A DNA stretch of 64,000 nucleotides, taken from positions 50,723 to 114,722 of the forward strand of contig QPMI01000689.1 in NCBI GenBank assembly GCA_004431415.1, in the 5' to 3' direction. Below are positions 4,024 through 37,184 of this stretch, piece after piece. The notes beneath the pieces are model-generated. The model saw nothing but the letters and a program-made list of their open reading frames with translations, had not been told where the DNA came from and did no database searches. The stretch comes from Cyanophora paradoxa CCMP329. Lineage: Eukaryota; Plantae; Glaucophyta. A program made the translations under genes and the position numbers. How positions within the stretch are numbered: position 1 is the stretch's first letter; each line of letters begins with the position of its first letter.

Positions 4024-4075
4024 ATGTCGGATCCCAGCGTCGAGATCAAGCCCGAGCGCATCAACATCTCGGTGA
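4024..4075 (+). pseudogene. SUMO: SUMO-like gene, 5' fragment (MSDPSVEIKPERINISV), interrupted by element 1
   Basis: Removing 4076-36927 rejoins the frame to KDQFGSVDVYKISKATKLQRLFDTHGYRIGRRPETIRFMFDGARIQPTQTPEEAGLEDGDAI, a typical SUMO/Smt3 pattern. Confidence 0.85.
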
Positions 4076-4148
4076 ACACATATGAATATTCATATTTTAA
4101 TCCCTCGGCGTTCCGCCTCAGGATTAAAATATGAATATTCATATGTGT
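4076..4148. repeat. Terminal hairpin of element 1, left end (28-bp perfect stem, 17-nt loop region)
   Basis: ACACATATGAATATTCATATTTTAATCC-ctcGGCGttcCGCCtca-GGATTAAAATATGAATATTCATATGTGT. Confidence 0.95.
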
Positions 4149-4892
4149 GATTCGATGTTATATCAATAAAATCGATTAATTTATTTGAATTTTCACATGA
4201 ATTTTCATATTTTTATATGCATTTTTCAAGTAATTTAATCGATATTATATCGATAAACTCGATTAATCGATATTGTATCTTAATTAGAGTTAATCGGAAT
4301 TATATCAATAACTTCGATTGATCTTAATTGAATCCTAAATGAATCTAATCGGAATTATATCAATAAATTCGATTAAATCATGTTCTTTTCCGATTAAATC
4401 AATTAAATATTTAACTTTGTTACCATAAGTGGTCTAAGTTGACTCACTTTTCATTAACATTTTGAACTCTTAGTCTCCTTGAATTTCTTAAGATGACTCA
4501 ACTTAGTCAACTTAGTCAACTTTGTTACCATAATCAATCAGGGTGGACTCACTTTTAGATCAACTTTGAAATTTCAAGCAAAATCAACTTTGATTTCAAA
4601 AGTGGATCTTCTAAGTGGACTCAAAATGTTCACTTTGTGATACATGTTAGCTCAAATCCTTACTGTTTATGGTCAGGGTTGACTAAGTGGGGGGAGTTGA
4701 CACATTTTTTGAAATCCTTTTTAGAAAACTTTAGGTCCCAAATATTTCCTGTGAAATTTGAGTCAACTCAACCCACTTAGTCAACCCTTGCATTGAATTC
4801 GTAACAAAATCCATATACTATTACTACTTTTACGATTAATATGAGTCAACCTTGAGTCCACTTTAATATAAATATTATATAATAGGGGGAAT
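4076..4892 (+). repeat. Left terminal inverted repeat (~817 bp)
   Basis: Reverse complement of 30843-31426 plus 36689-36921; near-identical (two substitutions noticed near 4810-4820). Confidence 0.92.
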
Positions 4893-5368
4893 CTAGGGGA
4901 GATGCTTACTAAATGCAATGTTAGATTGATGTTTTCATATATGTGATCACGTTAATCGAAGCTATATAATACAGTGGATTATTAGATATCATAAGTGGAT
5001 CGAATTGATAAGTATATGGTTAAAAATCGCGATTTGTGAGTTATAATTGAATTTAATCGAATTATTTTGAATTTCAAAACTCGCTTTAATCGTAATAGCG
5101 ATGTATACACATCGAGATTCGTATATGTGATTGCAAGTTATTGTTATGTATGATATATGTGATTATATTCGATCGTCAGTGCATCGATTTGATAACTTCC
5201 TGGTGATCTATATTAAAAACCCACGTTTTTCAAGCGCATCGATTTGATAACGTGGTGCTGAGATATCGCAGCAAACGTGAATATTGATTTTCCAGACGGG
5301 TACAGCATTAATCTAGAAAAAAACGCGTTTTTTTTTTACTTTTCAAGTTTCACGGCGAACGAAGTAAA

Positions 5369-5441
5369 GGTTCTCGAGCGGATTTGAACCGCGTAGTTCC
5401 GAGTCAGAAATCAAGCGCTCTATTCTCTGAGCCAAAAACGC
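5369..5441 (-). ncRNA. Degenerate tRNA-like sequence / possible Pol III unit
   Basis: TGGCTCAG..AGAGC (A-box/D-arm) and GCGGTTCAAATCCGC (B-box/T-arm) at tRNA spacing. Acceptor and anticodon stems are poor. Confidence 0.3.
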
Positions 5442-5667: not shown

Positions 5668-7053
5668 CTAGCTAGTTTTGGTCCTTTCTCTTAGTGTTCT
5701 CTGAGGTTTAGGGGCTGTATATGACTCCTTAGTAGTCTGAAAGTCATTATACCATCTTTGGCTATTCACTTCTGAAAGCTTCTGTGTTCCTGCTATAGTG
5801 AGCTTTTTGAGTTCCCTGTTAACTTTCCCAGCCTTCTCCTTTCTAGCCTCTATCAAAGGCTTATCTGGGACTTCATTAGCAGCTTCTATGCCCTCTCTCC
5901 TTATAGCAGCATCAACCCTAGCTTCCTCTTTAGCTTGCTCTAAGGCATCTACTGTAGGGGTTTCCAGATACTCAACTGCATTCACAGGCAACAGCTCATG
6001 GAAAGCAAACCTGTTATCTATGATCTCTCCAGTGGGACTCTTTAGCTTAAACTTGAAGCCTTCTCTACTATCAACAGTGTAAACCATCCTAGACCAATTG
6101 TTACCCTGTTTTGCAAAGGGGTTCTTCTCTACTTTCACTCTAACAAACATGCCAGGCTGCATGGTATCAAGATAAGCTATTGATTTCTTGAATCTTTCAT
6201 CTTCTAATCCCACTATATACCTATAATGCTCCTCTGTAGTTTCGCCTGGCTTCATCTTAGTAGCTGAGTGAACTGTATTATTGTAATTATACTCAATATC
6301 ACCTAACACATCAAAGAATCTAGCTGTATTATTAGCTATGCAGTAGTTTGTGATCAATCTCTTAATCTGCTTGTTAAAGGCTTCAATTCGACCTTGGCTT
6401 CTGTGGTCTGCAGTTCCACTCACTTGGTGTTCTATGTATTTACTAGATAGATACTCCTGGAATATTCGATTTTGGAACTCACTTCCAGCATCTGATTGAA
6501 CCTTTACTATGGGTCTTGCTACTCTCATCTCAAGCTGTTTAAATGCAGCTAATGTAGTGAGAGCTGATTTATCCCTAATAGGTATGATATACCCAGTTCT
6601 CAGTGTGGATTCCATTGCAGTCATAAAGGTATCATAGCCATTGTTTTGTTTCTTATAAGCTGGGAAAAAGAGCAAATCAATCACATAGGTATCAAGGGGT
6701 TGCCTTATTGGGACCATGGGATCTCTCTTTCTAGATATAGCAGGTGCATTGATCTGAACTACCTCTTGCTTTTTATAGAACTCTTGCAACTGCTTATAGG
6801 ATTCATCTGGTAACTCAGCCCTCATAGCTTGAAGCCCTTTGTAACCAGTTCTCACATCATAGAATCTCTTGGCAATCTTACTGGTTTCTTTCACTGCAAT
6901 AGCAACTGGGATCTCTACTGGGACAAGCTCTTTCATCTCAGACTTTTTGACAATTCGAGATTCCCCTTTTTCCTCCTTTGGAACTGTGATAGGCAGTAGG
7001 TTACCTTGTAGTTGCTCAGTGGTTCTCCTAACTATTCTTCCAGTTGCTGGCAT
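5668..7053 (-). CDS. Retroviral-like (rve, DDE) integrase of Polinton type
   Basis: YVIDLLF / VQSDAGSEF / QGRIEAFNKQIK catalytic D-D-E pattern, followed by YNNTVHSATKMKP and an SH3-like C-terminal segment. Confidence 0.92.
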   Translation of the reverse strand: MPATGRIVRRTTEQLQGNLLPITVPKEEKGESRIVKKSEMKELVPVEIPVAIAVKETSKIAKRFYDVRTGYKGLQAMRAELPDESYKQLQEFYKKQEVVQINAPAISRKRDPMVPIRQPLDTYVIDLLFFPAYKKQNNGYDTFMTAMESTLRTGYIIPIRDKSALTTLAAFKQLEMRVARPIVKVQSDAGSEFQNRIFQEYLSSKYIEHQVSGTADHRSQGRIEAFNKQIKRLITNYCIANNTARFFDVLGDIEYNYNNTVHSATKMKPGETTEEHYRYIVGLEDERFKKSIAYLDTMQPGMFVRVKVEKNPFAKQGNNWSRMVYTVDSREGFKFKLKSPTGEIIDNRFAFHELLPVNAVEYLETPTVDALEQAKEEARVDAAIRREGIEAANEVPDKPLIEARKEKAGKVNRELKKLTIAGTQKLSEVNSQRWYNDFQTTKESYTAPKPQRTLRERTKTS

Positions 7054-7056
7054 CTC

Positions 7057-10000
7057 TTAATTAAAAGGAACAGAATTAATACCATCTGGTAAGATGTATC
7101 TCTTTGCATCAAAGCAGTTTAGGGCAACCCTTCTACTCACAGTATCTATTATTGTGTGATCTGCCCTTCTCTTCTGCTTTGCAGTCACAGTCTTGCTGAT
7201 ACCTGCAAATAAACACTCCTTAAAATCATTGAATTGGAGTTCCTCAGTGGAAGTCCCAGAGAGCTTACTCCTCTCAATCTCAGCAGTTCTGAAACTGTAA
7301 ACTTTAGCTCTCAGACCCACATACTCCAATATAGCAGAACCTGGCATCTCATTTTTGTATTTACCTGGGGTCATTCTGTTAGATCCCCCTAGGTCCAAGG
7401 CATAAGATATATTCTCTATATCTTTTTGTAAGGTCTTAGATTCAATATATAGACAGAAGGAGTCAGTATCATGGAATAGTAACTTGGCTTTGGACCATTG
7501 GGACCTCACAGTATCATAGAAGAACTTGTAGTTATGCAGTTTGGCAGCATCCAAAACATAAGCCCCAATTGCAACTGGCTTATCTAGCTTCACATGTTTT
7601 GTGTAAAACTCAAAGGCAACTGCCCTTTCACTTATGGGACTTGTTGATTTCACTAAAGGAGAGGCTGCATATTTCATAAATAGCTTCTCAGTGTTGGCAA
7701 TCTTAACCACAGATCGACCTCTACATGATTCAATGCATTTCCCATAGATTGAATTATTCATGAGCTTATAGAAATCAGCCTCGAATTTATTCACTGCTTT
7801 CCTTCTCATATCAGTGTTCAGCTCAATATAAGATTTCATTACAGGAGCCACAGTAAATGATAGGACCCTGTGGACTTTACTCAATTTCACCCCTTTGTCC
7901 AACAGATACTGTAGAAGAGGCTCAGAAATCACATAGTTGGTCACAGAACCAAAGGTTGCAGTTAGCTTAGGGGTCTTATCAAGCTCTTCTCCCGAAAGAT
8001 CTAATAGGCTCTTTTGATATTGTGATAATTCTGCATATTCTACTATTTTCTTGTTAATAATTAGGGGAAAATCACTGTGATCTAGAAACAGCCTAATTGG
8101 GTAATCCAGATCAACTTCTAGGAAACTGGATCTGTTATCTTGTGGGTTGAATTCGGTCTCCCATCTAAAATCACCAACTGGGATTGGCTGACTCAAACAG
8201 TAGCCATACAAGTTGTTAGCATCAAACAGCATAATATGGGAGTTCTCACCATCAGCCTCAGCATACCTACAAGGCATTGTTGCAAAGCCACCCCTGATTC
8301 CCCTCTCAACAAATTCGTATTGCTCTACATCACTTATAAGCTCTATTTTTGCCTTGGTGGTCCTTAACATAGCATCCCAAGATAACCCAGGGGCAGATAC
8401 ATAATGAACTGGGTCAAGTCCATATACTGAGTGTGAAAGCCTTCTGAAGGCTTGGAATTTGTTCATTAACTCAGTCACATCAGCAGCTCCGAAATCCATG
8501 AAATTACTGGCATCAATGAACTTGTAAAGACCCCATTGCAATGATAGGTATTGATCAAAATTTTTCGAAAGGATTTCAATTCGCTTTTTATCACCCATGC
8601 CTGCTATTTTTCTGAAAATGAATGTCCCACAGTCATCCATTTGGTCAACAACAACTGCAACTTTGGTTTGCTTTGAGATTCTCCTATGGAGATTGCAGTT
8701 TCTGCATGCAGGAGCAATGTAATGACCTGTGTGATGATCATGATCCCTGCATTTGAAGTTCTCTTTGGTGAACCTCTCACTGCAAAGGTAACAGTGTTTA
8801 GTAGCCCTGTAAACAGCCTTTTGCTCATCTGTGAGTTCATTCATGGGTATATTGGTAAACAGAAAATCGATCAGTTCTCTTGCTTTGGACTCCAAGCATT
8901 CAAAGAGACCTCCCATTGGATCCTGCCCCTCAAATCGAAAATCTTGAACATCTGCCCCAGTGACTATTCTTATGTTGACTGCTGAGACTTCTCTCTTGGA
9001 TTTCGATGCATCTATGGGGATGCTTCTATGTTCAATCTTGCAGTAAACCACAACAGGAAGCCAAACAGTTTTCCTTAGGTTTTTCAGTCCAAACTCTATT
9101 GTGGTCTCAGGTTTAGGTGTGATTCCCTTTGAGAGTCTCCAATCAATGCATCTGTTTGAGTCCACATGAGCAGTGAGTTTAGCCTCAGACCTGAATCGAG
9201 ATAAGCATGTGTCACAGTAGTGTAACTTCTGATCATTGTATGTTTCATGGTTAACTTTCAATAGCCTTGAAAGGGACATGATTGTAATATAGTGACCATT
9301 CCCTTCATCATCAAATATCAGCATGAGATTAACCTTATGCTTTCTGCCTGGGTTACTTGATTGATGCAGGGGATAAACAACCTCTCCATCGATTCCAAAT
9401 ATATTAATGCTAATGCCTGCATTTTGAGCCTCGAATTTATCAATTATTTCAGCATCACAGGCAACAGGGAATGGGATATTGTCGAAATTGAGAGCCAGCG
9501 GATTATAAGCGATTGCTGAGTATTTCCATTTGCGATACTGTGAAAGCTCATTCCTCTTATGGGAGTTTATCGCTTTTCTGTGAATATATGCCAAAATTGC
9601 ATTTTCGAAGCAGGAATCATCAATATTTCGAATATTCACTGTGGCTCTCTTCCTAGCAATCCACTCTGGGGTTTGTAGAAAGCATCCACCAGTTGGAGCA
9701 TAACTCATAATAGCCACTCTGAGTATTTCAATTCTTTCTAAGCGATAGCTATCAACCACATTCATCTGCTCCTGACACATTTGGGCTGCTTTATTCAGCT
9801 CAGTTCGAATATTTCTCGATCTGGTTAATACAAAATAATCACTGTAAATGTATTTCGATATCCAAACCTGCGGATTGCTGACTTTAACGAACTTGCAGAT
9901 AAAAGACAAGCGAACCTTGATTGCCCTGAATTGATCTAAACCCTGCCTTAATCGATTAGGAAGGGATGTAGCAATTCTGTCCAGGAATTCAATCACATCT

Positions 10001-10302
10001 ACAACAACTTCCCTTCTGGCTCTGTAAGTGAGCCAGCGATATAATTCATTCATGGCTGTTCCATCTTCTGCCTCAGGTTCTATTTGCCTTAGGCGATCTA
10101 GTTCATCCAAGGTTTCAATTTTATCATATAGGTTATTTGCTTTTCTGGTTAATCTGGCTAAAGTGGGTCTACCCTTTGCAATTAAATCTATTTCCCGGTC
10201 ATATTCAGCCTCTGTTATTTCATGGGCTGCATAAAGTGTTCCCAGCAATCCCATGAGTTCCCATTTCTTCTCTCTTATGAGTTTGTTGGTAATTCGGGGC
10301 AT
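7057..10302 (-). CDS. Family B DNA polymerase (Polinton protein-primed type) with endonuclease-VII-like Zn insertion
   Basis: Motifs FDANNLYG, KLMNNSIYGK, HDTDS, GLRAKVY. CYLC..CRDHDHHTG..ACRNCN insertion. GLDPVHYVSAPGLSWDAML segment typical of Maverick PolB. Confidence 0.92.
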   Translation of the reverse strand: MPRITNKLIREKKWELMGLLGTLYAAHEITEAEYDREIDLIAKGRPTLARLTRKANNLYDKIETLDELDRLRQIEPEAEDGTAMNELYRWLTYRARREVVVDVIEFLDRIATSLPNRLRQGLDQFRAIKVRLSFICKFVKVSNPQVWISKYIYSDYFVLTRSRNIRTELNKAAQMCQEQMNVVDSYRLERIEILRVAIMSYAPTGGCFLQTPEWIARKRATVNIRNIDDSCFENAILAYIHRKAINSHKRNELSQYRKWKYSAIAYNPLALNFDNIPFPVACDAEIIDKFEAQNAGISINIFGIDGEVVYPLHQSSNPGRKHKVNLMLIFDDEGNGHYITIMSLSRLLKVNHETYNDQKLHYCDTCLSRFRSEAKLTAHVDSNRCIDWRLSKGITPKPETTIEFGLKNLRKTVWLPVVVYCKIEHRSIPIDASKSKREVSAVNIRIVTGADVQDFRFEGQDPMGGLFECLESKARELIDFLFTNIPMNELTDEQKAVYRATKHCYLCSERFTKENFKCRDHDHHTGHYIAPACRNCNLHRRISKQTKVAVVVDQMDDCGTFIFRKIAGMGDKKRIEILSKNFDQYLSLQWGLYKFIDASNFMDFGAADVTELMNKFQAFRRLSHSVYGLDPVHYVSAPGLSWDAMLRTTKAKIELISDVEQYEFVERGIRGGFATMPCRYAEADGENSHIMLFDANNLYGYCLSQPIPVGDFRWETEFNPQDNRSSFLEVDLDYPIRLFLDHSDFPLIINKKIVEYAELSQYQKSLLDLSGEELDKTPKLTATFGSVTNYVISEPLLQYLLDKGVKLSKVHRVLSFTVAPVMKSYIELNTDMRRKAVNKFEADFYKLMNNSIYGKCIESCRGRSVVKIANTEKLFMKYAASPLVKSTSPISERAVAFEFYTKHVKLDKPVAIGAYVLDAAKLHNYKFFYDTVRSQWSKAKLLFHDTDSFCLYIESKTLQKDIENISYALDLGGSNRMTPGKYKNEMPGSAILEYVGLRAKVYSFRTAEIERSKLSGTSTEELQFNDFKECLFAGISKTVTAKQKRRADHTIIDTVSRRVALNCFDAKRYILPDGINSVPFN

Positions 10303-11508: not shown

Positions 11509-14103
11509 CTAAACTTCAACATCAGAATCATAATCTGATGCATCTGGATCAGCAGCAGGTAGGTCCTGTTTCATTCTTGGATTAGCTTCTTCCTCAATAG
11601 TGTCATCATCTACAAGTTTCATCTTTCTGAATTCCTCAAATACTTGTGGGAATAGGAAATGATAGTATTGTTTGCCATTTGTAGTTTTCACTTGAATATA
11701 TGTAACACTTCTCATTTCAGTATAATATCTGCGACTATTATAATCGTTTTTATATTTGTTGCTGGTAATGAACTCCTGGAACCACTTCCAGGTTTCCACA
11801 AGGCTACCAGACTTGCATTTATTCTCGGAAATTAAGCCTCGATCCACAAGCCACTTAGTGAACATAAGAATGATTGGGGCGCATACCTGCTGGGCTAAAT
11901 AGTATTTATTTGTAAGGGGTCTATCAGCAATCCAGTTCACATCCTCACAGTCAACTTTGGTTCTCAAATAGTGGGCAATGTTTCGAATATTGCAGTGATC
12001 ATTAAGCCATTTTACAAGTGGAAGGAAGTATGACCTATCCTTTGCGAATTTCTTACTAACTTCAACAACCACAAATCGCCTATCTCCAGCTTCAATTTTC
12101 ACTGGAATGTTATTATTGCTGGTAAATATAATCCTGGCAAAGTTGCTTTTTGTGTATGAATCTATCCCTTTGTGTTCAATTACAATCTTATCAGAAGTTA
12201 TGAGATCTTTGAGCATATCATTATTTTCGAATGTGTCCTTGCCTGAGGCTTCATTGACAACAATCAAGATCTTATCCTCTCTGTTGTGGGCAAATCGACC
12301 AAACAGATCCTCTTTTGGCTTACCAGTTGCATAACTCAGGGCATCTCCAAGTATCTTCTTTTGAAAAGTATCAACCAACACATTCTTACCAGTTCCTTGT
12401 TCACCAATGAAGATTATGGATACTCCATTGAGTTCCCCAGGCTTTTGCAGCATGTGGGCAAACCATTTCAATAGATATTCGTAGGTATTTTGATCCTCAC
12501 CAGACATTAAGAACAAGTGATCTAGGAAAGGCTTAATCATCTCAGCAGTTACATCCTCTGGAGCATTTTCGAATTGCTGATGGTCAACCTTCATTCCTGG
12601 ATAGAGATTAAATACAGACTTGCATTTGGCACTGAGAGTAGCAGGAGGTGGGAGGAAATCCATGTAAGTTGATCTTGTGGCTGTTGGATCCACAATCCAT
12701 TTCCTAAATGATTGCTCCCATTTCTCTTTCTCATTATCTGTCCCCTCATTCACAATCACCTTATGCATCAAGTGGGGGAAATGCTTTGTAGAGAGCTTCC
12801 CAATATCTTTTGGCATCCAGCAAAGTAGTTGTTCATCCCAGAGCATCACACAACCAACATTTTCAACATGATGCATTCGAGCATTGAAATACCTCTTATG
12901 CACATTGTAATGTTCAGCCAAAGGAGGGATACTTGCAGTCTTGTAATCGATTTCATCTGTGTCCTCTGGTAGGAATGCATACTTTTTGGGGAAGAGTTCC
13001 TTGAAAAGCTCATTGTTATCTTTGCTCAACCAATAAACCAAGGATTTGAAGGTTAACACTTTGCCAGGCTCAACCTTCTTCTTGCTTCTGCGAAGCTGTG
13101 TAAACTTCTCCTGGCATTCATCATAATCATACTTGTCACTCTGTTCTGAGAATTGGTGGAAGAGTTCAGCTTGCATTTTAGGGGTGAACTTGTTGTCTTC
13201 CCCAACATTGATGATGACCAGTCCTACATCAATCCAAGTTTTATACTCATTAGCTCTCTCACCATTCAGACCCATTATAACACTTTGTAGCAGCTCGAAA
13301 GTAACAGGATTTTCGGGTTCAGTGTCTTTTTCAGCTTCTACCTTCTCAGTCTTCACTTTATCACTTTTTGGCTCCTTTTTAACTGGTTTTGGCTCAGGGC
13401 TATAATTTGCGAATGCAGAAATATTCGATTCATCCACAAGTTTAGTAGTAGCTGAGAAGTAAGATACAAAGAAGTCCTCATTTCGCATTAACACTTTGTC
13501 ACAGTCAACGAATTTCTTAAAGCAAACGTTTTTATCAACATCTTTTTTCGATTTATTTTGAGCATCCAGAGTCTCACCTTTGCAGCAATTGAGGCAGATA
13601 AGGTTCTGTGTGGAGCTGTACACTCCACTGTCATAATCCTCATTTTTCACCAATCCCATTGCTTTGAAAAGCTTGGGGATATCTTCATGTTTGCATGCAA
13701 GCGATTTAATGATAAAGTGGGCTGAGATCTTGAACTTGGTGACATCCTCCTTGATCAAATAAACCCTTCTATGGCGAACTGCAACAGCAATATCGTTAAT
13801 CGAAGTGGTCCCAGATCGCTTCCATAGCTTATCTCTCATCTCTCTTACAACAGCTTCCGCCTCAGCATAGTTATCAGCAATGTTCTCCTTCAAATCAGCG
13901 AATTTATCCAGGTCCAGGTAAACTCTGGTGACTTGTTCAGGCTGAATGCATTCAGCCCAGGTCTTAATCTTGCTATTATCAATGGCTTCAAGGGCATCTT
14001 CGGCAGAATCAAATACATGGGTGACCTTGTTGCGATCACCAATGAGAGTACTAAGGAATGTAGCGTTTTCAACAGGGGTGGCGAATTTCTCGATTTTGTT
14101 CAT
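11509..14103 (-). CDS. AEP (PrimPol-like) primase - PriCT-2 - SF3/D5-like helicase
   Basis: AEP motifs YLDLD, SAHF, DSGVY. PriCT-2-like YKTWIDVG..FSEQSDKYD. Walker A GEQGTGKN, Walker B VVNEA, motif C FTSNN, GDRRF. Confidence 0.88.
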   Translation of the reverse strand: MNKIEKFATPVENATFLSTLIGDRNKVTHVFDSAEDALEAIDNSKIKTWAECIQPEQVTRVYLDLDKFADLKENIADNYAEAEAVVREMRDKLWKRSGTTSINDIAVAVRHRRVYLIKEDVTKFKISAHFIIKSLACKHEDIPKLFKAMGLVKNEDYDSGVYSSTQNLICLNCCKGETLDAQNKSKKDVDKNVCFKKFVDCDKVLMRNEDFFVSYFSATTKLVDESNISAFANYSPEPKPVKKEPKSDKVKTEKVEAEKDTEPENPVTFELLQSVIMGLNGERANEYKTWIDVGLVIINVGEDNKFTPKMQAELFHQFSEQSDKYDYDECQEKFTQLRRSKKKVEPGKVLTFKSLVYWLSKDNNELFKELFPKKYAFLPEDTDEIDYKTASIPPLAEHYNVHKRYFNARMHHVENVGCVMLWDEQLLCWMPKDIGKLSTKHFPHLMHKVIVNEGTDNEKEKWEQSFRKWIVDPTATRSTYMDFLPPPATLSAKCKSVFNLYPGMKVDHQQFENAPEDVTAEMIKPFLDHLFLMSGEDQNTYEYLLKWFAHMLQKPGELNGVSIIFIGEQGTGKNVLVDTFQKKILGDALSYATGKPKEDLFGRFAHNREDKILIVVNEASGKDTFENNDMLKDLITSDKIVIEHKGIDSYTKSNFARIIFTSNNNIPVKIEAGDRRFVVVEVSKKFAKDRSYFLPLVKWLNDHCNIRNIAHYLRTKVDCEDVNWIADRPLTNKYYLAQQVCAPIILMFTKWLVDRGLISENKCKSGSLVETWKWFQEFITSNKYKNDYNSRRYYTEMRSVTYIQVKTTNGKQYYHFLFPQVFEEFRKMKLVDDDTIEEEANPRMKQDLPAADPDASDYDSDVEV

Positions 14104-19751: not shown

Positions 19752-19780
19752 TCTTCTTTTATCTATATTTATATATTAAA

Positions 19781-22259: not shown

Positions 22260-22302
22260 CTTTTACTTATCAGGAATTTTATAAATCCATATAGTAAAAG
22301 CC

Positions 22303-25300
22303 ATGAGCTTCAATTACCCACCCAATCTAGAAACCATTCAAGATGATAATGCAAGCAGCACCAAGCATGTGAACTTTGATAATATTAAAGTAAAGGGTTC
22401 AGTTTCGATTGACCACAGCTCTGATAATACTTCCAAGACTCAATCAAGGGAGCATGCTTTATCTGTGAATCAAACCGATCCAGATAAGGAGGAAGTCAGT
22501 GTTGCTTTTAGCTTGGGTAATGTGAAAGCAAACCAAGTGGCAGAGATCAAAGCAACAAGAAGGAGACCTAGGAAACTAAAAACCAGTGGCACTCACCCAG
22601 ATATACCTTCTAGGTTTGATAGTGGTCGATTGATTTTCAATGTTCAAGATGAGCAGGGCAAACAGAACACAGCTTTGCGAATTTACAATGAGGGCAGCAC
22701 TGCAAAAGCTGAGGTCCCCCAAGTATTGCAAGTGGGTCCCATTGCCAATACAAATCAGGTCTCCTACACAAATGATGTCTACCCCAAGGATATTACATAT
22801 GACTTTGCGAGGAATGAGCCTTTTGGGTTCTTTACTCCAAAAGATGTCCATCAAAAAAAGCCATCAATTACAATCAACAGTAGCCCCAGTCAGCCAGTAG
22901 CAATCCATTTACACCCTGATTTAGTCGAAATGGATAGGCACCTTTTGCCTTTGTATAGCAATGTGAAAGACCTTGGAATAAGAACCAGGCAATGGCGAAA
23001 TATCCATGGCAGTAATGTGTATGCAAATGGTGAGAAGCTTGTAAGTGAGAAGACCATAAGAGAGATCTTTGAGTATTATGGACCTGTCCCAGTTCCCTTC
23101 CCTCTTCCATGGGATCCACCAGATTTAACACCAAAAAAGCAACCAGGCAGAGAGTACACAGCAGATGAGACAGTTCCTTTTGGGCAACACATTGTTAGTT
23201 GGGAGCAAGTTCGCAATAAACCTATAATTGAACCCAGAAAGCAAATAGATGAGCAGTATTTACCTCCTGAAGTCGACATATTAGAGCTTGATGAATACCA
23301 ATTCGTCCCAGATGAGGAAGAGTATTTACCTGATGGTTTTGACCCACAAGAATATGAATATGATCAATTTGACCCCAATGAGGAGGAGATACTACCAGAT
23401 GGCTTAGATCCACAAGAGTTTGAGTATGAGCAGAACTATGAGCCTGATGAGGAGTATTTACCAGATGGTCATGATCCACCAGCTGTTGACTATGAGCAAC
23501 CTTATGAACCTCATGAAGAATTATTACCAGATGGATTTCGACCTGAGATCTGGGAGTTCTTTCCTGATTATGAACAAATTAATAATAAACCTGCAAAGTA
23601 TCCCCCAGAGGATCACAACCATGATTGGGATGAAATCTTAGGCAAACCTCAAAAGTATCCACCAGAGGATCACAGGCATGATTGGGGAGAAATTGATGGG
23701 ATTCCAGATAAGTTTGCAGCAAGCAACCATGAACACACTTGGGATGAGATCAATGACCAACCAGAATTTGCAAAGGTAGAGCCTCTTGATAACTTGGGGG
23801 TTTCTCTTTACCAGACTTGCAATGTCCCTGAAAGAATCTTTTTGAATGAACACTATGTACATGTGAATGGGACACTTGCAAATTCAGCTATGAGAGGACC
23901 ACTTCATATTAGGACATTACCAGGCTCTTATGATCCACCACCTGAACCAGGAGCAACCATACCAAATATCTTTGTGTCAAGCTACATGGAGGCTGACATT
24001 CCCACAGATACATTCAGAGTCCCAACAGACCCAGCAACCTACCAAAATTTCAACTCTGCTATACAGGTTCATGTAGCAGATGTAAGCAGCTTAGATGGCT
24101 CAAGACCAATGATAGTATTCAGCAGAGATAAATATTCTTATATTCCCATAGTGGGAACTGCAAATGATAATTATGGGAGGGCAGAGCTTGCATGGATTAA
24201 AACAGATTATGGTGGGGTTCTGGAAGCCAATCAGAGGATGGCTGCAAAAAACATTCACAATGAGAACATTTCGAGAGTGGTCACAGAGGATTATCTAGAA
24301 GATCAAGGATATATTGATGAAGGTGAACTCACAAATACTCTCTCTCTTTTTGTGATCAAAAATGACACAAACCTTACAGTCACAAGTAACATTTACACCA
24401 GCAACCTTTATACAAGTAACATTTTCACAAGTAACCTATGGGCAAGTAATATTTATGGAAGTAATTTAGAAGTCGACTATTTGACTGTGAATATTGAAGC
24501 AAACCTACCAAATCATCCTACTTCCAATGTTGTTTTGGATTGGATTGATAACCACACACACACAAAAGATGAGATCACAGATTTTGCACATGATCATTTA
24601 TGGGAGCATATCACAAATCCCCCATTGACCTTTCCACCCAGTTCCCATACTCATTTATGGGAGCATATTACTAATCCCCCCTCAACCTTCCCGCCCAGTT
24701 CACACACTCATGACTACTCAGAGATCACAAACTCTAATCACAGACACATTTGGAGTGAAATAGATGAACAGCCAGTATTCGCACAATTGAATGCAATCGG
24801 AAACGTTTTTAATGGAGTCACACTTTACCAATCGATTAATACACCTGAAAGGCTATTTTTGAATGATCATTATGTTAGTCTCAATGGGACTTTTACAGGT
24901 CAAACAGGCACTCCAATGGAGGGAACTCTTGCAGTAAGATTACCCAGGGATCCAATTGTAAATGGAGTTTATGATGGTGATTTCAATGTAGGAGTAAATG
25001 ATACTTTCCCCAGTATCTATGTTACGAATTATCACCCAGGTGAAACAGGACAAGTAGCCGATTTTTCAGCAGCTATTCAAATAAACGTTACAGATCAAAG
25101 CCCATATGATGGAGCAAGACCTAAGATTGTGTTCACAAGGGAGAAAGTCGTAAACTACCTTCCTGTTGTGGGACAACCCACAGATGATCATGGGAAATGT
25201 GAGATGGCATGGATTAAAACGACATCAGGAGGAGCCTTAGAAGTCAATCAGAGGATGGCAGCAAAAAACTTACACAATACAACCCTTTCAGGTGTGGTCA

Positions 25301-27819
25301 CAGATGATTACCTTACCAATAAAGGGTATCTTACCTCTGCAGATTTAAGCAGTTATACAACTGATGCAGAGTTAACAACAGCTCTTGCAAACTATTTGCC
25401 TCTTACAGGTGGGACTGTCACAGGAACTGTGAATGCTACCACTTTACAAATTGGTGGAACAACAATTCCAAAAGGTTATGATTTCGACCAATTAGATGTT
25501 ATTTCGACAGACAGATCTCCAAATAACTGGACTGTTACATGGGCATCAAGAACAGGGCAAAATGGATGTTATACCACACCACAAAATGATGAAGATTGCA
25601 GTGGTTGTTGGATGAGATGGCTTGTCCCCTCAGGAATGAAGTCGTTTTATATCCAGCATATGCCTTGGTATAATTGCAGATATTTCGATATCTATGGGCA
25701 AACAACTAATGGATATCAACATTTCTTAAAGCGAGTAAATGCCTATCAGGGTATACAACAGGTGAATCAGGATGGAACACACAATACAATCTTGTTTGTC
25801 TCTATCAATTGCGAATTCTACAAATATATTTATGTCCAAGGTCGAAAAGGTCGCATTCATCTCACAGGTGTTTTTGGGTGGAGCAGACAGAGGGCAACAG
25901 ATAATGAATTGGGCATGATCTCTTGGGATAATATTTTTAGTAAACCATCATTTTATTCAGCCGCAGACCTTCCAGGAACGGCAACATGGACAACTAACAC
26001 ATTGTTAAAATCAACAGACAATATAGAAAGATTTTGGTTTGGAAATGGTAATACGACATATATTCGAGGTTATGGAAACTCTGATAATGTTTGTGTGGAG
26101 TTTCGCAATGGCTCCGATTTAGCATTATTAAAATCATATAATAATGGTAATTTATGGGTAGGAGGAAGTTTAAATGTTACTACAAGTGTAAGCGCACCAT
26201 CAATTACAGGAACTACTATAAATGCTACTACGAATCTCCAGATAAATGGGAATGCTGTTCCAAAGCTACACTCCAACGATGGATATGTTGCAGGCAGTTC
26301 TCCACACAATTATTCTGGAAGTTGGACATTTGGGTATGGCTCAGCTTGGGAACCCTATTTTAATTATGGTGGGCATGCATACAATAATGAAGTGGATGAC
26401 CAAACCTCTTCCGCTTGGATTGAATACAATATACCCGATGGATTACACACTGGGTCAGCATTTCTGACTCATTTACCATGGGGCAACACACGAATTTTCG
26501 AGATTTGGGGAATTAATCGACAAGGCAATGCGATTTTCATAACAACTGTCAACAATTATCACCCTTATGCAGGGTCTGCAAATGATAACCATAGTGGTGT
26601 GAATAATGTCCCCATCTTCCTAGGAAACCGATTTGTAAGGATTCGAATTCAAGCAAGAATTGGAAGGGTTCACATTATGGGTATTAGTTTCATGAAAATA
26701 TGGGTTGGGCATAGCTATGGTGGTCACACTGGTTATATTCATTGGAATAATGTGTATAGTAAGCCGAATATACCTACATCCTATCTATCATTAACTGATG
26801 TCACCAATTCGATTGGAAACATTACAGGTTTTGATACTTGGAGTGGAACAGGTTCCTATGGTCTATCATTTAGTGGTGGTTGGACAACAGGTTGGACACC
26901 AACCTACACAAATCCAGTCGATGGATTTTATAGTACCATTTCAGGCGATGAGACAAGTGGTGATTGGGCGCAAATTGAAGTCCCTGGTAACATGAAAACA
27001 TGTCATGTTCAATACCTGTGTTGGACAACTTCAAGATATTTCGATATTGGAGGCTATCGAAATGGGAGGTGGCATCACATTATGAGGGTGAACTGTTACC
27101 AAGCCGTTTCAAATGCAGCTGATTCAGATTGGCATGATGGCTTAACATGGACTTCTTTCCATTGTGATACATTTTCTCATGTTAGATTTGTTGCAAGAAA
27201 AGGGAGATGTCACATTGGCATGATTGGTTGGACAAAAGAAAAAGGAAGAACAGCACCAGCAAATGGTTTTATAAGTTGGGATAACGTTTTTAGTAAAGAT
27301 GCTCGCACAACTTGGGCTACCGGAACTTGGATAACATCAGATGATAATTATGGGAGAGTTTATTTCGGTTCATCATCGACTACATACATTAAAGGTTATG
27401 GTTACGAAATGATCCATTTTAGAAATGGAATTGATATAACAATGCAAGCTTTTTATAATGATGGTAACGCTTACTTTTGGGGATGGCTTACACAAGGAAG
27501 CGACCGTAGATATAAAACCGACATTAAAAATATAACCGGCGCCCTTTCAGCAATCGAGAAATTACAGGGTGTGAGTTATAAAAAGATTGGTGATGAAAAA
27601 CAGAAAGTAAATCTAGGTTTAATTGCGCAAGATGTCGAAAAAGTCATACCAGAAGTAGTAGGTAAAAATCACGAAAACTATTTAACCCTTGCATATACAG
27701 GTTTAATTCCAGTTCTCATAGAAGCTGTAAAGGAATTATCCCAGAAATGCAAAGATTTAACACAAACCTGTGAGAATCTCCAAAGTCAAATAAACCAAAT
27801 TAAAAATGTCACATTATAA
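22303..27819 (+). CDS. Large fibre/spike protein with C-terminal peptidase S74 intramolecular chaperone
   Basis: HxH(D/T)W fibre repeats, acidic LPDG repeats, YLPLTGGT motif, three repeated globular domains, and SDRRYKTDI..GLIAQDV..LIEAVKEL. Confidence 0.85.
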   Translation: MSFNYPPNLETIQDDNASSTKHVNFDNIKVKGSVSIDHSSDNTSKTQSREHALSVNQTDPDKEEVSVAFSLGNVKANQVAEIKATRRRPRKLKTSGTHPDIPSRFDSGRLIFNVQDEQGKQNTALRIYNEGSTAKAEVPQVLQVGPIANTNQVSYTNDVYPKDITYDFARNEPFGFFTPKDVHQKKPSITINSSPSQPVAIHLHPDLVEMDRHLLPLYSNVKDLGIRTRQWRNIHGSNVYANGEKLVSEKTIREIFEYYGPVPVPFPLPWDPPDLTPKKQPGREYTADETVPFGQHIVSWEQVRNKPIIEPRKQIDEQYLPPEVDILELDEYQFVPDEEEYLPDGFDPQEYEYDQFDPNEEEILPDGLDPQEFEYEQNYEPDEEYLPDGHDPPAVDYEQPYEPHEELLPDGFRPEIWEFFPDYEQINNKPAKYPPEDHNHDWDEILGKPQKYPPEDHRHDWGEIDGIPDKFAASNHEHTWDEINDQPEFAKVEPLDNLGVSLYQTCNVPERIFLNEHYVHVNGTLANSAMRGPLHIRTLPGSYDPPPEPGATIPNIFVSSYMEADIPTDTFRVPTDPATYQNFNSAIQVHVADVSSLDGSRPMIVFSRDKYSYIPIVGTANDNYGRAELAWIKTDYGGVLEANQRMAAKNIHNENISRVVTEDYLEDQGYIDEGELTNTLSLFVIKNDTNLTVTSNIYTSNLYTSNIFTSNLWASNIYGSNLEVDYLTVNIEANLPNHPTSNVVLDWIDNHTHTKDEITDFAHDHLWEHITNPPLTFPPSSHTHLWEHITNPPSTFPPSSHTHDYSEITNSNHRHIWSEIDEQPVFAQLNAIGNVFNGVTLYQSINTPERLFLNDHYVSLNGTFTGQTGTPMEGTLAVRLPRDPIVNGVYDGDFNVGVNDTFPSIYVTNYHPGETGQVADFSAAIQINVTDQSPYDGARPKIVFTREKVVNYLPVVGQPTDDHGKCEMAWIKTTSGGALEVNQRMAAKNLHNTTLSGVVTDDYLTNKGYLTSADLSSYTTDAELTTALANYLPLTGGTVTGTVNATTLQIGGTTIPKGYDFDQLDVISTDRSPNNWTVTWASRTGQNGCYTTPQNDEDCSGCWMRWLVPSGMKSFYIQHMPWYNCRYFDIYGQTTNGYQHFLKRVNAYQGIQQVNQDGTHNTILFVSINCEFYKYIYVQGRKGRIHLTGVFGWSRQRATDNELGMISWDNIFSKPSFYSAADLPGTATWTTNTLLKSTDNIERFWFGNGNTTYIRGYGNSDNVCVEFRNGSDLALLKSYNNGNLWVGGSLNVTTSVSAPSITGTTINATTNLQINGNAVPKLHSNDGYVAGSSPHNYSGSWTFGYGSAWEPYFNYGGHAYNNEVDDQTSSAWIEYNIPDGLHTGSAFLTHLPWGNTRIFEIWGINRQGNAIFITTVNNYHPYAGSANDNHSGVNNVPIFLGNRFVRIRIQARIGRVHIMGISFMKIWVGHSYGGHTGYIHWNNVYSKPNIPTSYLSLTDVTNSIGNITGFDTWSGTGSYGLSFSGGWTTGWTPTYTNPVDGFYSTISGDETSGDWAQIEVPGNMKTCHVQYLCWTTSRYFDIGGYRNGRWHHIMRVNCYQAVSNAADSDWHDGLTWTSFHCDTFSHVRFVARKGRCHIGMIGWTKEKGRTAPANGFISWDNVFSKDARTTWATGTWITSDDNYGRVYFGSSSTTYIKGYGYEMIHFRNGIDITMQAFYNDGNAYFWGWLTQGSDRRYKTDIKNITGALSAIEKLQGVSYKKIGDEKQKVNLGLIAQDVEKVIPEVVGKNHENYLTLAYTGLIPVLIEAVKELSQKCKDLTQTCENLQSQINQIKNVTL

Positions 27820-30165: not shown

Positions 30166-30194
30166 GTTTAATTAATTTTTCTAAGGTATTCTTA

Positions 30195-30593
30195 ATGGAG
30201 ACTCAATACAGAGGCTTTCATGTTATGCTTGATTACAAAGCTAAATCAGCTATTGCAACAGGACATGAGCATGTGAGCTTCCTAGGTAATTGGATTATGA
30301 AAACCCTTGAACAAGCTATATTGCGACAAGGTATTAGGATTGTTCATAAACACTGTGAAATATTTGATGGCAAAGTATCACCTCCTGGTTTTGCATTGGT
30401 TCTGCTATTAGATGAAAGCCATTGTACAGCTCATTGTTATTCCAATGAAGGCATGTTAGCAATTGATATATTCAGTTGTGGTAAAGAAGCTCAGCATAAA
30501 ACACAAGCAGTTGCAGATGAGATCGATAAAACAATGAATTTCCTCACATTTGAGAAGACTGAAAGACATAAACATGATAGATTCCCGTTTTAA
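30195..30593 (+). CDS. speD: S-adenosylmethionine decarboxylase proenzyme (short prokaryotic/viral type)
   Basis: G.HVMLD, PPGF..VLLLDESHCTAHCY (E|S autocleavage site), AIDIFSCG. Confidence 0.85.
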   Translation: METQYRGFHVMLDYKAKSAIATGHEHVSFLGNWIMKTLEQAILRQGIRIVHKHCEIFDGKVSPPGFALVLLLDESHCTAHCYSNEGMLAIDIFSCGKEAQHKTQAVADEIDKTMNFLTFEKTERHKHDRFPF

Positions 30594-31426: not shown

Positions 31427-34400
31427 TCAGGCGAAGCCTCTTTCTCAAACCCAAAAACCGCCGATATAAATTCCTTTTTTAACCTTTTTTTCCACTCAAG
31501 ATCCCCCCTGCTAAATAATTTCCGCGTCGCACTCCCTCGAGGACGAATTATTAATTCTGCCTCGACACGGACGCGATTGCCGCTAATGACTCAGCTACCC
31601 TAACCCCCACAGACCTCTCTAGATCCATTTTTAGCGTCGTGGCTCCCCTAAGACGACCGCTCGCCCGTGGGCGTCGCGCGAAAATCGAATTTCCCTCTGG
31701 ATCAATTCCGGTACTTAACCTCCGACAAATGCAGTCCGAGTCAGAAGGTGGGACCCGGTCCCGCCCGGTCCCGCGACGAAATCGCGCCAGGGACGCCCCA
31801 GAACGATACAGAATGCCGCGCGAGGGCGAGCGCATCGCCGCAAGCTCGATTTTGGGCGCCGTCGACGCTCCAGTGCGAAGAGTCGGCCGAAAATTTGATC
31901 CGGCCGGTTCCGGCCGGTCCCGCGACGCGCGCAATCGATGCGTACTGGCGCGCATGGACATAGCAGGGCCTGCGCACCCCCGAAATCCGCTTTTCGGAGC
32001 CGGAACAGCGCAGGAAGGTACCCGACGGCCAAAATTCGATCCTGCACGCGCCCTGACATCTTTCCGCGCGCCCACGCCGCGGCGCATGCGCGGAACGATA
32101 GCATAAGCATTTAAGATGTAGGCAAAGTCTTCCGCACGCTTTGCGTATGCGACGGGCCGCGAGGACCCAGCCGACCCCGAAAATTCGATCCTGCATGGAC
32201 CTGCACATCTTTCCGCGCGCCCTCGCCTCGAGCTCCGCAGCCCCGCACATCGATGCTATAGCTATATGCATTCAAGATTCTGTTTAAGCGATTCGCAAGC
32301 TCTGTGCATGCGCCTGGCCGCGAGAACCTTGCCCCTCCCGGGCCTCCCTCTCAACAATATTATCAGGCGAAGCCTCTTTCTCAAACCCAAAAACCGACGA
32401 TCTAAATTCCTTTTTTAACCTTTTTTTCCACTCGAGATCCCCCCTGCTAAATAATTTCCGTGTCGCACTCCCTCGAGCCAGAATTATTAATTCTGCCTCG
32501 ACACGGACGCGATTGCCGCTAGTCACACACCCACCCGAACCCCCACAGACCTCTCTAGATCCATTTTTAGCGTCCTGGCTCCCCTAAGACGACCGCTCCC
32601 CCGTGGGCGTCCCGCGAAAATCGAATTTCCCTCTGGATCAATTCCGGTACTTAACCTCCGACAAATGCAGTCCGAGTCAGAAGGTGGGACCCGGTCCCGC
32701 CCGGTCCCGCGACGAAATCGCGCCAGGGACGCCCCAGAGCGATACAGAATGACGCGCGAGGGCGAGCGCATCGCCGCAAGCTCGATTTCGGGCGCCCTCG
32801 ACGCTCCAGTGCGAACAGTCGCCCGAAAATTTGATCCGGCCGGTTCCGGCCGGTCCCGCGAAGCGCACAAACGATGCGTACGAGCGCGCATAGAAATAGC
32901 AGGGCCTGCGCACCCCCGAAATCCGCTTTTCAGAGGCCGAACAGCGCAGGAAGGTACCCGACAGCAAAAATTCGATCCTGCACAGGCCCGGACATCTTTC
33001 CGCGCGCCCGCGCCGCGGCGCACGCGCGGAACGATAGCATAAGCATTTAAGATGTACAAGAAGACTTCCGCACGCTTTATAAATGCACCAGGCCGCGAGG
33101 ACCTAGCCGACCCCGAAAATTCGATCCTCTACAGACCTGCAGACCTTTCCGCGGTCCCGCGACGAAACCGCGCCAGGGACGCCCCAGACCGATACAGAAT
33201 GACGCGCGAGGGCGAGCGCATCGCCGCAAGCTCGATTTCGGGCGCCGTCGACGCTCCAGTGCGAAGAGTCGGCCGAAAATTTGATCCGGCCGGTCCCACC
33301 CGGTCCCGCGACGCGCGCAATCGATGCGCACTGGCGCGCATAGACATAGCAGGGCCTGCGCACCCACGAAATCCGCTTTTCGGATGCCGAACAGCGCACG
33401 AAGGTACCCGACGGCAAAAATTTGATCCTGCACCGGCCTGGACATCTTTCCGCGCACTCATGCCGCGGCGCATGCGCGGAACAATAGCATAAGCATTTGA
33501 GATGTAGAAGAAGCCTTCCGCACGCTTTATAGCTGCGCCGGGCCGCGAGGACCCAGCCCACCCCGAAAATTCGATCCTCTACAGACCTGCAGACCTTTCC
33601 GCGCGCCCTCGCATCCTCGCGCGTGCGCATCGCTACAATAGTAATTTGACATCTTCGTTAAGCTTTTTGCGACCCCCGACAACGCGACAGGGCGCGAGAA
33701 TCCAGCCGACCCTGAAAATTCGATCCTGCATGGACCTGCACGTCTTTCCTCGCGCCCTCGCCTCCGCAACCCTGCACATTGGTACTATATGCATGCGAGA
33801 TTCTTTTTAAGCGATTGGCAAGCTCTGCGCATGCGCCTGGCTGCAAGAACCTCGCCCCTCCGGATCCTCGGGCTCCCACCCCCCCCACGTGCACAAGCCA
33901 ATACATAAAATCTCCTCTCAATATGCTCCACCAGTTAAAAGCAAGCCAGTACGTCCAACTCCTCCCTAATTATAAATTCCCTCTAGCTCCTCGATCATTA
34001 CATTCCTCTCTGGCCAGCCAGGTTCGTCCCCCAGCCCTCTGGCTATATATATAGCTAGCGAGCCAGCATGCATATATATGGCCCGGCCGCCAGCTTCGAA
34101 TTCCAGCCAGCCATTTGGCCGGGCAGCGCGCTGGCCAGTGCGCTAGGCCTAGGCTGCCAAGGCCTACTGTGACAGCCGCGAGAGCGTCCGCGAGGCTTCG
34201 CCGTACTTAGTGCTCCGCAGGAGCACGGATCTTGTCTCAAACCCAAAAACCGACGATCTAAATTCCTTTTTTAACCTTTTTTTCCACTCAAGATCCCCCC
34301 TGCTAAATAATTCCCGTGTCGCACTCCCTCGAGGCAGAATTAATAATTCTGCCTCGACACGGACGCGATTGCTGCTAGTCACACACCCACACGAACCCCC

Positions 34401-36688
34401 ACAGACCTCTCTAGATCCATTTTTAGCGTCGTGGCTGCCCAAAGACGACCGCTCCCCCGTAGGCATCCCGCGAAAATCGAATTTCCCTCTGGATCAATTC
34501 CGGTACTTAACCTCCGACAAATGCAGTCCGAGTCCGAAGGTGGGACCCGGTCCCGCCCGGTCCCGCGACGAAATCGCGCCAGGGACGCCCCAGAACGATA
34601 CAGAATGACGCGCGAGGGCGAGCGCATCGCCGCAAGCTCGATTTTGGGCGCCGTCGACGCTCCAGTGCGAAGAGTCGGCCGAAAATTTGATCCGGCCGGT
34701 TCCGGCCGGTCCCGCGACGCGCGCAATCGATGCGTACTGGCGCGCATAGACATACCAGGGCCCGCGCACCCCCGAAATCCGCTTTTCGAACCCGGAGCAG
34801 CGCAGGAAGGTACCGGACAGCAAAAATCCGATCCTGGACAGACCCGGACATCTTTCCGCGCGCCCACGCCGCGGCGCATGCGCGGAACGATAGCATAACC
34901 ATTTAAGATGTAGAGAAAGACTTCCGCACGGTGTCTAAATGCACCAGGTCACGAGCACCCAGCCGACCCCGAAAATTCGATCCTTGACGACGACCGCTCC
35001 CCCGTAGGCATCCCGCGAAAATCGAATTTCCCTCTGGATCAATTCCGGTACTTAACCTCCGACAAATGCAGTCCGAGTCCGAAGGTGGGACCCGGTCCCG
35101 CCCGGTCCCGCGACGAAATCGCGCCAGGGACGCCCCAGAACGATACAGAATGACGCGCGAGGGCGAGCGCATCGCCGCAAGCTCGATTTTGGGCGCCGTC
35201 GACGCTCCAGTGCGAAGAGTCGGCCGAAAATTTGATCCGGCCGGTTCCGGCCGGTCCCGCGACGCGCGCAATCGATGCGTACTGGCGCGCATAGACATAC
35301 CAGGGCCCGCGCACCCCCGAAATCCGCTTTTCGAACCCGGAGCAGCGCAGGAAGGTACCGGACAGCAAAAATCCGATCCTGGACAGACCCGGACATCTTT
35401 CCGCGCGCCCACGCCGCGGCGCATGCGCGGAACGATAGCATAACCATTTAAGATGTAGAGAAAGACTTCCGCACGGTGTCTAAATGCACCAGGTCACGAG
35501 CACCCAGCCGACCCCGAAAATTCGATCCTTGACAGACCTGAACATCTTTCCGCGCGCCCTCGCATTCTCGCGCATGCGCATCGTCGCAATATTCATTTGA
35601 GATTTTATCAAAGTTTTCCACAAGCTTTGAAGACGCGAAAGAGCACGAGAACCCAGCCGACGGCAAAAATTCGATCCTGCACACGCCTGGACATCTTTCC
35701 GCGCGCCCACGCCACGGCGCATGCGCGGAACAATAGCATAAGCATTTGAGATGTAGATCAAGCGTTCCGCGCGCTTTGCAGATGCGCCGGGCCGCGGGGA
35801 CCCAGCCGACCCCGAAAATTCGATCCTTGAGGGAACTGAACCGCGTTCCGCGCGCCCTCGCGTCCTCATGCATGGGCATCGCTATAATATTCATTTGAGA
35901 GCTTTTCAAAGCGTAATGCAAGCCCCAAGGGCGCGACAGGGCGCGAGAATTCAGCCGACCCCGAAAATTCGATCCTGCATGGACCTGCACGTCTTTCCGC
36001 GCGCCCTCGCCTCCGCAGCCCCGCACATCGATGCTATATGCATTCGAGATTGTGTTTAAGCGATTCGCAAGCTCTGTGCATGCGCCTGGCCGCGAGAACC
36101 TCGCCCCTCCCGGGCCTCCCCCCCAACAATACATTAATATTAAATAAATCTCCTATCAATCTGCTCCACCAGTTAAAAGCAAGAGTTACCGGTTCAACTC
36201 CTCCCCTAGTTCATTATATATTCGCTCTCCTCATTACATTGCTCCCTGGCCAGCGAGCTCTCCCTCGAGCTGGCTATAGCGGGCCAGCCCATTGCCCCAG
36301 TGCCAAGCCGGCGAAACTTTTGAAGCCCGGCCATGCAACTGGGCGGGGCTGCAGCTGCCCGCCTACTGTGACAGCCGCGAGGGCGTCCGCGAGGCTTCGC
36401 CGTACTTAGTGCTCCGCAGGAGCACGGATCTTGTATATAATTCATCTCCTCTAATCTCAACCTGCTCCGGCCTCCCTTTATTTCCTCAGTACATTAATAT
36501 TCCTCTAGTTATATTCCTCTAGCCGGCCAGCGGTAGCTGGACTGGCCGTCAGCCGGCCAGCTTCCAACCAGAAAGCTGTTCGCGATCGGCCAGGCCGCTG
36601 GCCAGTGCCCTATAGGCCTACTGTGACAGCCGCGAGGGCGTCCGCGAGGCTTCGCCGTACTTAGTGCTCCGCAGGAGCACGGATCTTG
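31427..36688 (+). mobile_element. Nested non-autonomous Helitron/Helentron-like elements inserted in the right TIR (outer 31427-32362 + 36434-36688; inner tandem 32363-34234 and 34235-36433)
   Basis: No TSD; TIR rejoins as AAGTTA|TTGATATA. 5'-TC starts. Three identical 3' ends with GTGCTCCgcaGGAGCAC hairpin then GGATCTTG. 11-bp subterminal inverted repeat GGCGAAGCCTC/GAGGCTTCGCC. GC-rich internal repeats. Confidence 0.75.
34444..35533 (+). repeat. 545-bp near-perfect tandem duplication inside the third Helitron-like copy
   Basis: Identical ORF translations offset by 545 nt (e.g. 34507-34902 vs 35052-35447). Confidence 0.85.
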
Positions 36689-36921
36689 TTGATATAATTC
36701 CGATTAACTCTAATTAAGATACAATATCGATTAATCGAGTTTATCGATATAATATCGATTAAATTACTTGAAAAATGCATATAAAAATATGAAAATTCAT
36801 GTGAAAATTCAAATAAATTAATCGATTTTATTGATATAACATCGAATCACACATATGAATATTCATATTTTAATCCTGAGGCGGAACGCCGAGGGATTAA
36901 AATATGAATATTCATATGTGT
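36689..36921 (-). repeat. Right TIR, outer part, including the terminal hairpin 36849-36921
   Basis: Reverse complement of 4076-4308. Confidence 0.93.
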
Positions 36922-37184
36922 CGGTGAAGGACCAGTTTGGTTCCGTCGACGTGTACAAGATCAGCAAGGCCACCAAACTTCAGCGCCTCTTCGACACCCA
37001 CGGCTACCGGATCGGGCGGAGGCCGGAGACGATTCGATTCATGTTCGACGGCGCCCGAATCCAGCCCACCCAGACGCCGGAGGAGGCAGGTCTCGAAGAT
37101 GGTGACGCAATCGAGTGAGTCCTTTGCCTTTTCGTTCACCTTTACCTTCCTCACGCACCTTGCAGCATCATGTTCGAGCAGGTG
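36922..37184 (+). pseudogene. SUMO: SUMO-like gene, central fragment (exon to 37114, 51-nt intron 37115-37165, exon 37166-37184 giving DIMFEQV), cut by element 2
   Basis: IRFMFDG.RI...QTP...GLEDGD.I SUMO signature. The GTGAGT..TTGCAG intron gives ...AIDIMFEQV, where GG is expected next. Confidence 0.85.

Follow-up and report, generated by a model that had tools for sequence, protein, structure and literature searches.

Two polinton-like viruses inserted independently in one SUMO-like gene of Cyanophora paradoxa

A SUMO-like gene interrupted twice

The window analysed here is the whole 64,000-nucleotide stretch of contig QPMI01000689.1 (positions 50,723 to 114,722, forward strand) of the glaucophyte Cyanophora paradoxa CCMP329, and its central feature is a SUMO-like gene that is interrupted by two different polinton-like viruses (PLVs), called element 1 and element 2 below. 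Positions 1-4075 are host-like DNA, rich in GC (60%) and with small genes that contain introns, and are followed by the two AT-rich elements. The pieces of the gene and the elements that separate them are arranged as follows.

4024-4075, plus strand: 5′ piece of the SUMO-like gene, from the start codon to the first target duplication, CGGTGA (4070-4075)
4076-36921: element 1, a complete PLV with 825-bp terminal inverted repeats and the 6-bp target duplication CGGTGA
36922-37114, plus strand: second CGGTGA copy (36922-36927), followed by the SUMO-like gene's middle piece, with Pfam and PDB matches
37115-37165, plus strand: putative GT-AG intron of the SUMO-like gene, 51 nt, with splicing deduced from restoration of the frame
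37166-37184, plus strand: exon piece of the SUMO-like gene up to a Val codon, with the second target duplication, CAGGTG (37179-37184)
37185-64000: element 2, a second PLV in the opposite orientation, which continues beyond the window
37185-37259: terminal hairpin of element 2, 75 nt

A sequence-only reading of this DNA had proposed that excision of element 1 restores a SUMO-like frame, and this was confirmed. Removal of element 1, one CGGTGA copy and the 51-nt intron yielded an open frame of 86 codons (MSDPS...DIMFEQV), which ends in Glu-Gln-Val, and element 2 starts (37185) directly after the Val codon. In the right frame, positions 36924-37112 matched the Pfam family Rad60-SLD with 42.9 bits (cut-off, 23.8; E = 4e-11), and the middle piece also matched SMT3/SUMO chains in the PDB (E about 1e-11).

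The same reading had placed two different PLVs in this one gene, which was likewise borne out. Each element has its own 6-bp duplication; measured in the empty gene, the starts of the two duplications are separated by 257 bp. In all four DNA runs (X1, X3, X4 and X5), the junction 36894-37211, which leads from element 1 across the SUMO piece into the first bases of element 2, was recovered as one unbranched contig of 315-318 nt without differences. Because these runs may derive from the window's own strain, the junction contigs verify the assembly rather than the age of the insertions, and since the junction contig was unbranched, an empty allele was not visible in the runs, whose contigs drop rare variants. 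The far end of element 2 was reached in X3, where a single-contig loose end before position 37183 is, as read by eye, the reverse complement of that end. There, as had been predicted, CAGGTG is followed by Gly-Gly codons, in the series Gly-Gly-Gly-Ser-Glu-Glu-Ala-Asp, so that the C-terminal Gly-Gly of the SUMO family is present. Beyond it the frame stays open without a stop across the 26 bases in view, and the gene may therefore be longer than the approximately 300 bp first assigned to it. From the duplications at both elements and the unbranched junction in four DNA runs, we conclude that the gene carries two real insertions, 257 bp apart, which were independent events.

By its sequence, the interrupted gene is a divergent paralogue of the SUMO family. 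Its SUMO-like piece was at most 51% identical to the 150 best representatives, with the exception of one domain of P0007, a three-domain SUMO-like protein of C. paradoxa, which was 61% identical and is the nearest relative of the gene. The first domain of P0007 terminates alike, in Glu-Gln-Val-Gly-Gly-Gly. Residues 2-20 of P0007 weakly resemble the lambda-exonuclease family (E = 0.0075, far below the cut-off). A protein search with the right-frame piece returned no close homologue of 34-111 aa, and no second contig bearing the piece was found at 80% likeness in X1, X3 and X4 or at 85% in X5. Three RNA-type runs had no coverage of the piece and are uninformative on its expression.

The two elements and the surrounding DNA

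Other features of element 1, and a motif upstream of the gene, are given below.

3894-3955, plus strand: promoter-like motif upstream of the SUMO-like gene, with two palindromic copies 24 nt apart followed by TATAAA; putative function
4076-4148, plus strand: terminal hairpin of element 1, with a 28-bp stem, then a bulge, a 4-bp stem and a TTC loop (z = −14.2), with a mirror copy at 36849-36921
5668-7053, minus strand: rve-type DDE integrase, 461 aa (rve, E = 1.4e-4, below the cut-off; IS481-type, E = 2.3e-12)
7057-10302, minus strand: protein-primed family B DNA polymerase (pPolB), 1081 aa (DNA_pol_B_2, E = 1.5e-13)
11509-14103, minus strand: primase-helicase, 864 aa (PriCT_2, DUF5906)
16475-17257, minus strand: A32-type packaging ATPase (Pox_A32, E = 1.3e-12)
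17317-18687, minus strand: major capsid protein of 456 aa, probably a double jelly-roll (feature search; similarity to P0152)
20703-27819: patatin-like lipase (minus strand) and 1838-aa fibre protein with an S74 chaperone domain (plus strand)
31427-36688, plus strand: GC-rich Helitron-like block, 5.26 kb, located in element 1's right inverted repeat

Element 1 thus has features by which a PLV is recognised, namely a capsid protein, an A32 ATPase, inverted repeats with a 6-bp duplication, and an integrase together with a replicase. Its inverted repeats show 4 mismatches over 825 bp once the GC-rich block 31427-36688 is removed, and its further genes include a GIY-YIG nuclease and a RING protein. 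The capsid protein is likely a double jelly-roll of the PLV type, as judged from a feature score of 0.98 to Capsid_N/Capsid_NCLDV clusters (with recognition below the tool's threshold) and from 59% identity to P0152, its only database homologue; a structure model with a pLDDT of 36.8 was unusable. Two beta-rich candidates for minor capsid (penton) proteins lie at 18741-20713, both without a family match. An adenain-like cysteine protease was not found among the open reading frames (ORFs) of element 1 scanned against Pfam, several of which match nothing and could include a divergent one; on this sequence evidence, element 1 would not be classed as a Polinton/Maverick in the strict sense, which is defined by such a protease. 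Neither the element ends nor the integrase or the capsid had a match in viral or metagenome contigs. Element 1 also carries an S-adenosylmethionine decarboxylase gene at 30195-30593 (Pfam, E = 1.5e-11).

Over 7.5 kb, the virion block of element 2 was 82% identical to that of element 1, whereas the polymerases were 25-43% identical and the start of the integrase 31% identical over the 99 residues in view. Module exchange of this sort, between virion and replication genes, has been described as common in such viruses (10.64898/2026.10.13.758929). The hairpin design is common to both families, although only 18 of the 28 stem letters are alike, and both elements carry pPolB and a primase-helicase alongside the terminal hairpins. 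Relative to element 1, the genes of element 2 (47240-64000) are disrupted mainly by single-base gaps, which could reflect assembly error or decay. At 55692-56561, between its virion and replication modules, it contains a pair of 31-bp repeat arrays together with an AT-rich stretch of 155 bp that is duplicated.

Helitrons insert between A and T without duplication, start with TC and end with a hairpin followed by CTRR. The GC-rich block in element 1 likewise sits between A and T without a duplication, starts with TC and ends behind a small hairpin, but its terminal CTTG departs from CTRR. It contains nested partial copies, with 5′ ends at 31427 and 32363 and 3′ ends at 34234, 36433 and 36688. 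The block is unrelated to both PLVs and ends 497 bp from the insertion site of element 2.

In the host-like DNA to the left, the arrangement of palindromes and TATAAA that precedes the SUMO-like gene recurs before two other genes, at 340-392 (minus strand) and 597-662 (plus strand), and the three genes with this common motif may form a co-regulated, SUMO-related cluster. The motif had no exact match in viral contigs and was not found in metagenome contigs. The gene at 752, which lies under the shared motif, has a stretch resembling a SUMO-interacting motif (IILIEDSDEEES). For four small ORFs at 752-3714, Pfam, PHROGs and NCBIfam gave no family; one of the four (2144) is cysteine-rich and had no match in the phage collection.

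Chance, tolerance and targeting

The favoured explanation is that two distinct PLVs landed independently in a gene that is likely dispensable and accessible, in a genome holding very many such elements, and this is probably how the arrangement arose, rather than through recognition of SUMO genes by the integrases. The double insertion is most likely a tolerated local pile-up. The chemistry of rve integrases, a staggered cut followed by end joining, is established; on this basis and from the gene content, the integrase of each element would have cut the target with a 6-bp stagger and attached the hairpin-bearing ends there. The first insertion would have killed a non-essential SUMO-like paralogue, so that subsequent insertions, of the other virus and of the Helitron-like block, would have been neutral and hence retained. 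The position of the Helitron-like block, 497 bp from the site of element 2, fits such a pile-up, and open chromatin at a strongly promoted gene may have aided insertion.

How often two elements come to lie this close depends on their number. A supplementary table lists 366 capsid loci for a 99.9-Mb C. paradoxa assembly (PMC10120064). As a rough guide only, the contig depth in X1 (5917 for element-1 ends as compared with 65.9 for the junction contig, or about 90-fold) suggests about 90 ends of the element-1 type and about 50 of the element-2 type. When 366 elements were inserted uniformly into 92.6 Mb, a pair within 257 bp arose in 6284 of 20,000 simulations (0.31), so that one such close pair is about 31% likely by chance at this load, for a locus that was chosen post hoc. 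When only 20 Mb were taken as insertion-tolerant, a close pair arose in 16,436 of 20,000. The view that two insertions in so small a gene are unlikely by chance is thus not supported at the full element load.

The proposal that the integrase prefers SUMO genes found mostly contrary evidence. Six of the seven readable single-contig flanks of other element ends were not SUMO-like in 30 letters as read by eye (all three of the element-2 type and three of four of the element-1 type). This count leaves out four mixed rows of two contigs (X1 and X4 at 37183, X4 at 37184, X17 at 36921), the far end of element 2 itself, the joint contig 37087-37185 and 1 + 21 undisplayed rows. GGTG is present at both junctions, as had been noted, but it lies out of register, at positions 2-5 of the duplication of element 1 and 3-6 of that of element 2, and the two target sites have no motif in register. 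The idea of a multicopy or safe-harbour repeat target was not upheld at an identity of at least 80%. Target-specific elements have most of their copies at a single conserved sequence or gene family, and a multicopy target; here six of seven flanks were unrelated, in a small and biased sample, and no multicopy target was seen at 80-85% likeness, more divergent paralogues existing. Together with integrases that are only 31% alike over the 99 aa in view, these sequence comparisons argue mostly against SUMO targeting, and we regard true targeting of SUMO genes as unlikely, with one flank, described below, keeping it in play. None of these results demonstrates the SUMO-based antiviral function that the sequence-only reading had suggested for the gene.

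Several points weigh against tolerance of chance insertions. The figure of 366 was counted in a published C. paradoxa assembly and not in the window's own genome, and when only about 70 elements, those of these two families, are counted, a close pair arose in just 254 of 20,000 simulations (0.013). The flanks read represent 7 of about 140 ends (about 5%), cover 30 letters each and are biased to first letters like ours, a sample so small and biased that a target-site logo is not obtainable from it. Moreover, one flank of an element-1-type end, found in two RNA-type runs (X15 and X17, in contigs of 1365 and 1148 nt that include 805-1116 letters of the flank), agrees with the element-1 site in 12 of 13 bases at an offset of 2. 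In simulations such a match occurred per flank in 10 of 150,000 cases near register and in 31 of 30,000 at any shift, which gives a chance of about 0.001-0.01 over the flanks seen. Should this look-alike prove to be a SUMO paralogue, the genome-wide expectation for a small family to be hit three times is only 0.002-0.009 family-sized bins.

The look-alike flank reads Glu-Val-Lys-Asp-Gln and then GT, at what we take to be the intron position of plant and animal SUMO genes. Its opposite strand holds an equally plausible coding frame that runs into the element. That the flank belongs to a SUMO paralogue, and so marks a third hit, is a fair minority prospect, with the balance tilted the other way.

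The rival that survives best holds that the viruses are steered, by tethering or by weak sequence reading, to a lineage-specific SUMO-like family or to genes with the palindromic promoter, in which case the element-1 family would have struck the same Val-Lys-Asp-Gln codons twice. It draws on the two confirmed insertions in one gene, on the 12-of-13 look-alike with its Glu-Val-Lys-Asp-Gln and GT, on the related protein P0007 and on the promoter motif common to three neighbouring genes, and Tf1 offers a precedent of tethered promoter targeting (PMC5741268). Set against this, six of the seven flanks that could be read show no relation to SUMO, two integrases with 31% identity would need the same preference, none of 52 V-K/R-x-Q matches, drawn from 150 SUMO-like hits, has a Glu in front, and the coding frame on the other strand of the look-alike would explain why it is joined to an element end in RNA-type runs. 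A second apparent hint, the joint of 37087 to 37185, is not SUMO. We therefore consider steering of this kind unlikely, though worth keeping in mind, and the specific form of it in which two families with different integrases entered one copy and the element-1 family entered another, no more than two bases away from these codons, is unlikely to much the same degree. If the look-alike is indeed a SUMO paralogue, it would show that PLVs can be guided to a gene family when they integrate; such steering would bear on how PLVs choose their sites, and what it disables is likely a stress or defence modifier.

The joint 37087-37185 (X1 and X3) was at first taken for another SUMO paralogue joined to an end of element 2 and then rejected, for it lies in a 7674-nt contig with a Gly/Asp-rich frame before a 24-nt match. 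A 24-mer match with at most 4 mismatches was obtained in 0 of 60 simulated contigs, so that the joint is rarer than plain chance suggests, in a simulation that models no low-complexity DNA and for a joint whose number of mismatches was not displayed. Separately, in RNA-type contigs (X15 and X21; 37232-37335), unrelated host sequence that looks coding is joined to the second arm of a hairpin of the element-2 type, which suggests a cut-down end at another locus.

A further rival places the SUMO-like gene in an old virus-derived region, such as a domesticated giant-virus insert, on the premise that viral or silenced regions attract or tolerate insertions. Consistent with this, five compact neighbouring ORFs have no family, one promoter motif stands at three genes, and the closest paralogue opens with the 19 residues (2-20) of weak lambda-exonuclease likeness mentioned above (E far below the cut-off). 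Giant endogenous viral elements have been reported in C. paradoxa (PMC12344493), and viral sequences have been described as PLV insertion hotspots (10.64898/2026.07.28.741278). However, no viral marker gene was found in 1-4075, the genes there have short spliceosomal-type introns and a GC content at third codon positions of 0.8-0.9, as expected of host genes, and the promoter motif lacks an exact match in viral contigs; a viral origin of the region is improbable. Misassembly or rearrangement between two element ends, which the many single-base gaps of element 2 relative to element 1 might recall as signs of a weak long-read consensus, is extremely improbable given the unchanged junction in all four DNA runs and the matching duplications at both elements.

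We thus return to a tolerated pile-up of independent insertions as the preferred reading. As it most likely stands, the locus is a verified case in which PLVs disrupted a host-like gene twice and formed a local pile-up, which is no surprise where a genome holds hundreds of PLVs.

Relation to known systems

The elements resemble the endogenous PLVs of C. paradoxa described by Bellas et al. (2023; PMC10120064), with which they share the rve integrase, polymerase, primase-helicase, ATPase and inverted ends. The source name of P0152, the homologue of the element-1 capsid, bears the same contig label as an HHpred-confirmed capsid row in table S2 of that study, and another capsid row there begins, as judged by eye, almost like the capsid of element 1. 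The accessible rows and passages of its tables S1, S2 and S4 mention neither insertion sites nor SUMO. A patatin-discoidin fusion has been noted for glaucophyte PLVs (PMC12220804), and in the supplementary duplication table of the same paper neither CGGTGA nor CAGGTG appears, its only two C. paradoxa rows both concerning tRNA. In the literature searched, with most subscription journals and bioRxiv supplements outside its scope, no paper linking polintons and SUMO and no description of SUMO-directed or gene-family-targeted PLV integration was found.

For targeting, the models are R2, Dada and Utopia, which target multicopy genes, and tethered LTR elements such as Tf1. These elements return repeatedly to a single conserved site or feature, whereas most of the other flanks here show no relation to the gene, whose piece in turn is not multicopy.

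Closer parallels are found among rve-bearing virophages, whose integration is not sequence-specific and often strikes exons (PMC8547959). Like the present elements, the endogenous mavirus-like elements (EMALEs) of Cafeteria burkhardae show rve integration, short duplications and invasion by other mobile elements; 13 of 22 classed sites were exonic and many lay near repeats (PMC8547959). They differ in having virophage capsids, and no double insertion in one gene is described in the section covered. The virophages and PLVs of Halocafeteria seosinensis (10.64898/2026.07.28.741278) are alike in their nesting, in their pile-ups with transposons and in the terminal palindromes beside the duplication. 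There, however, palindromes occur mainly with replication genes other than pPolB, whereas both elements here combine them with pPolB and a primase-helicase, and the present pile-up occupies a host-like gene rather than the interior of another virus.

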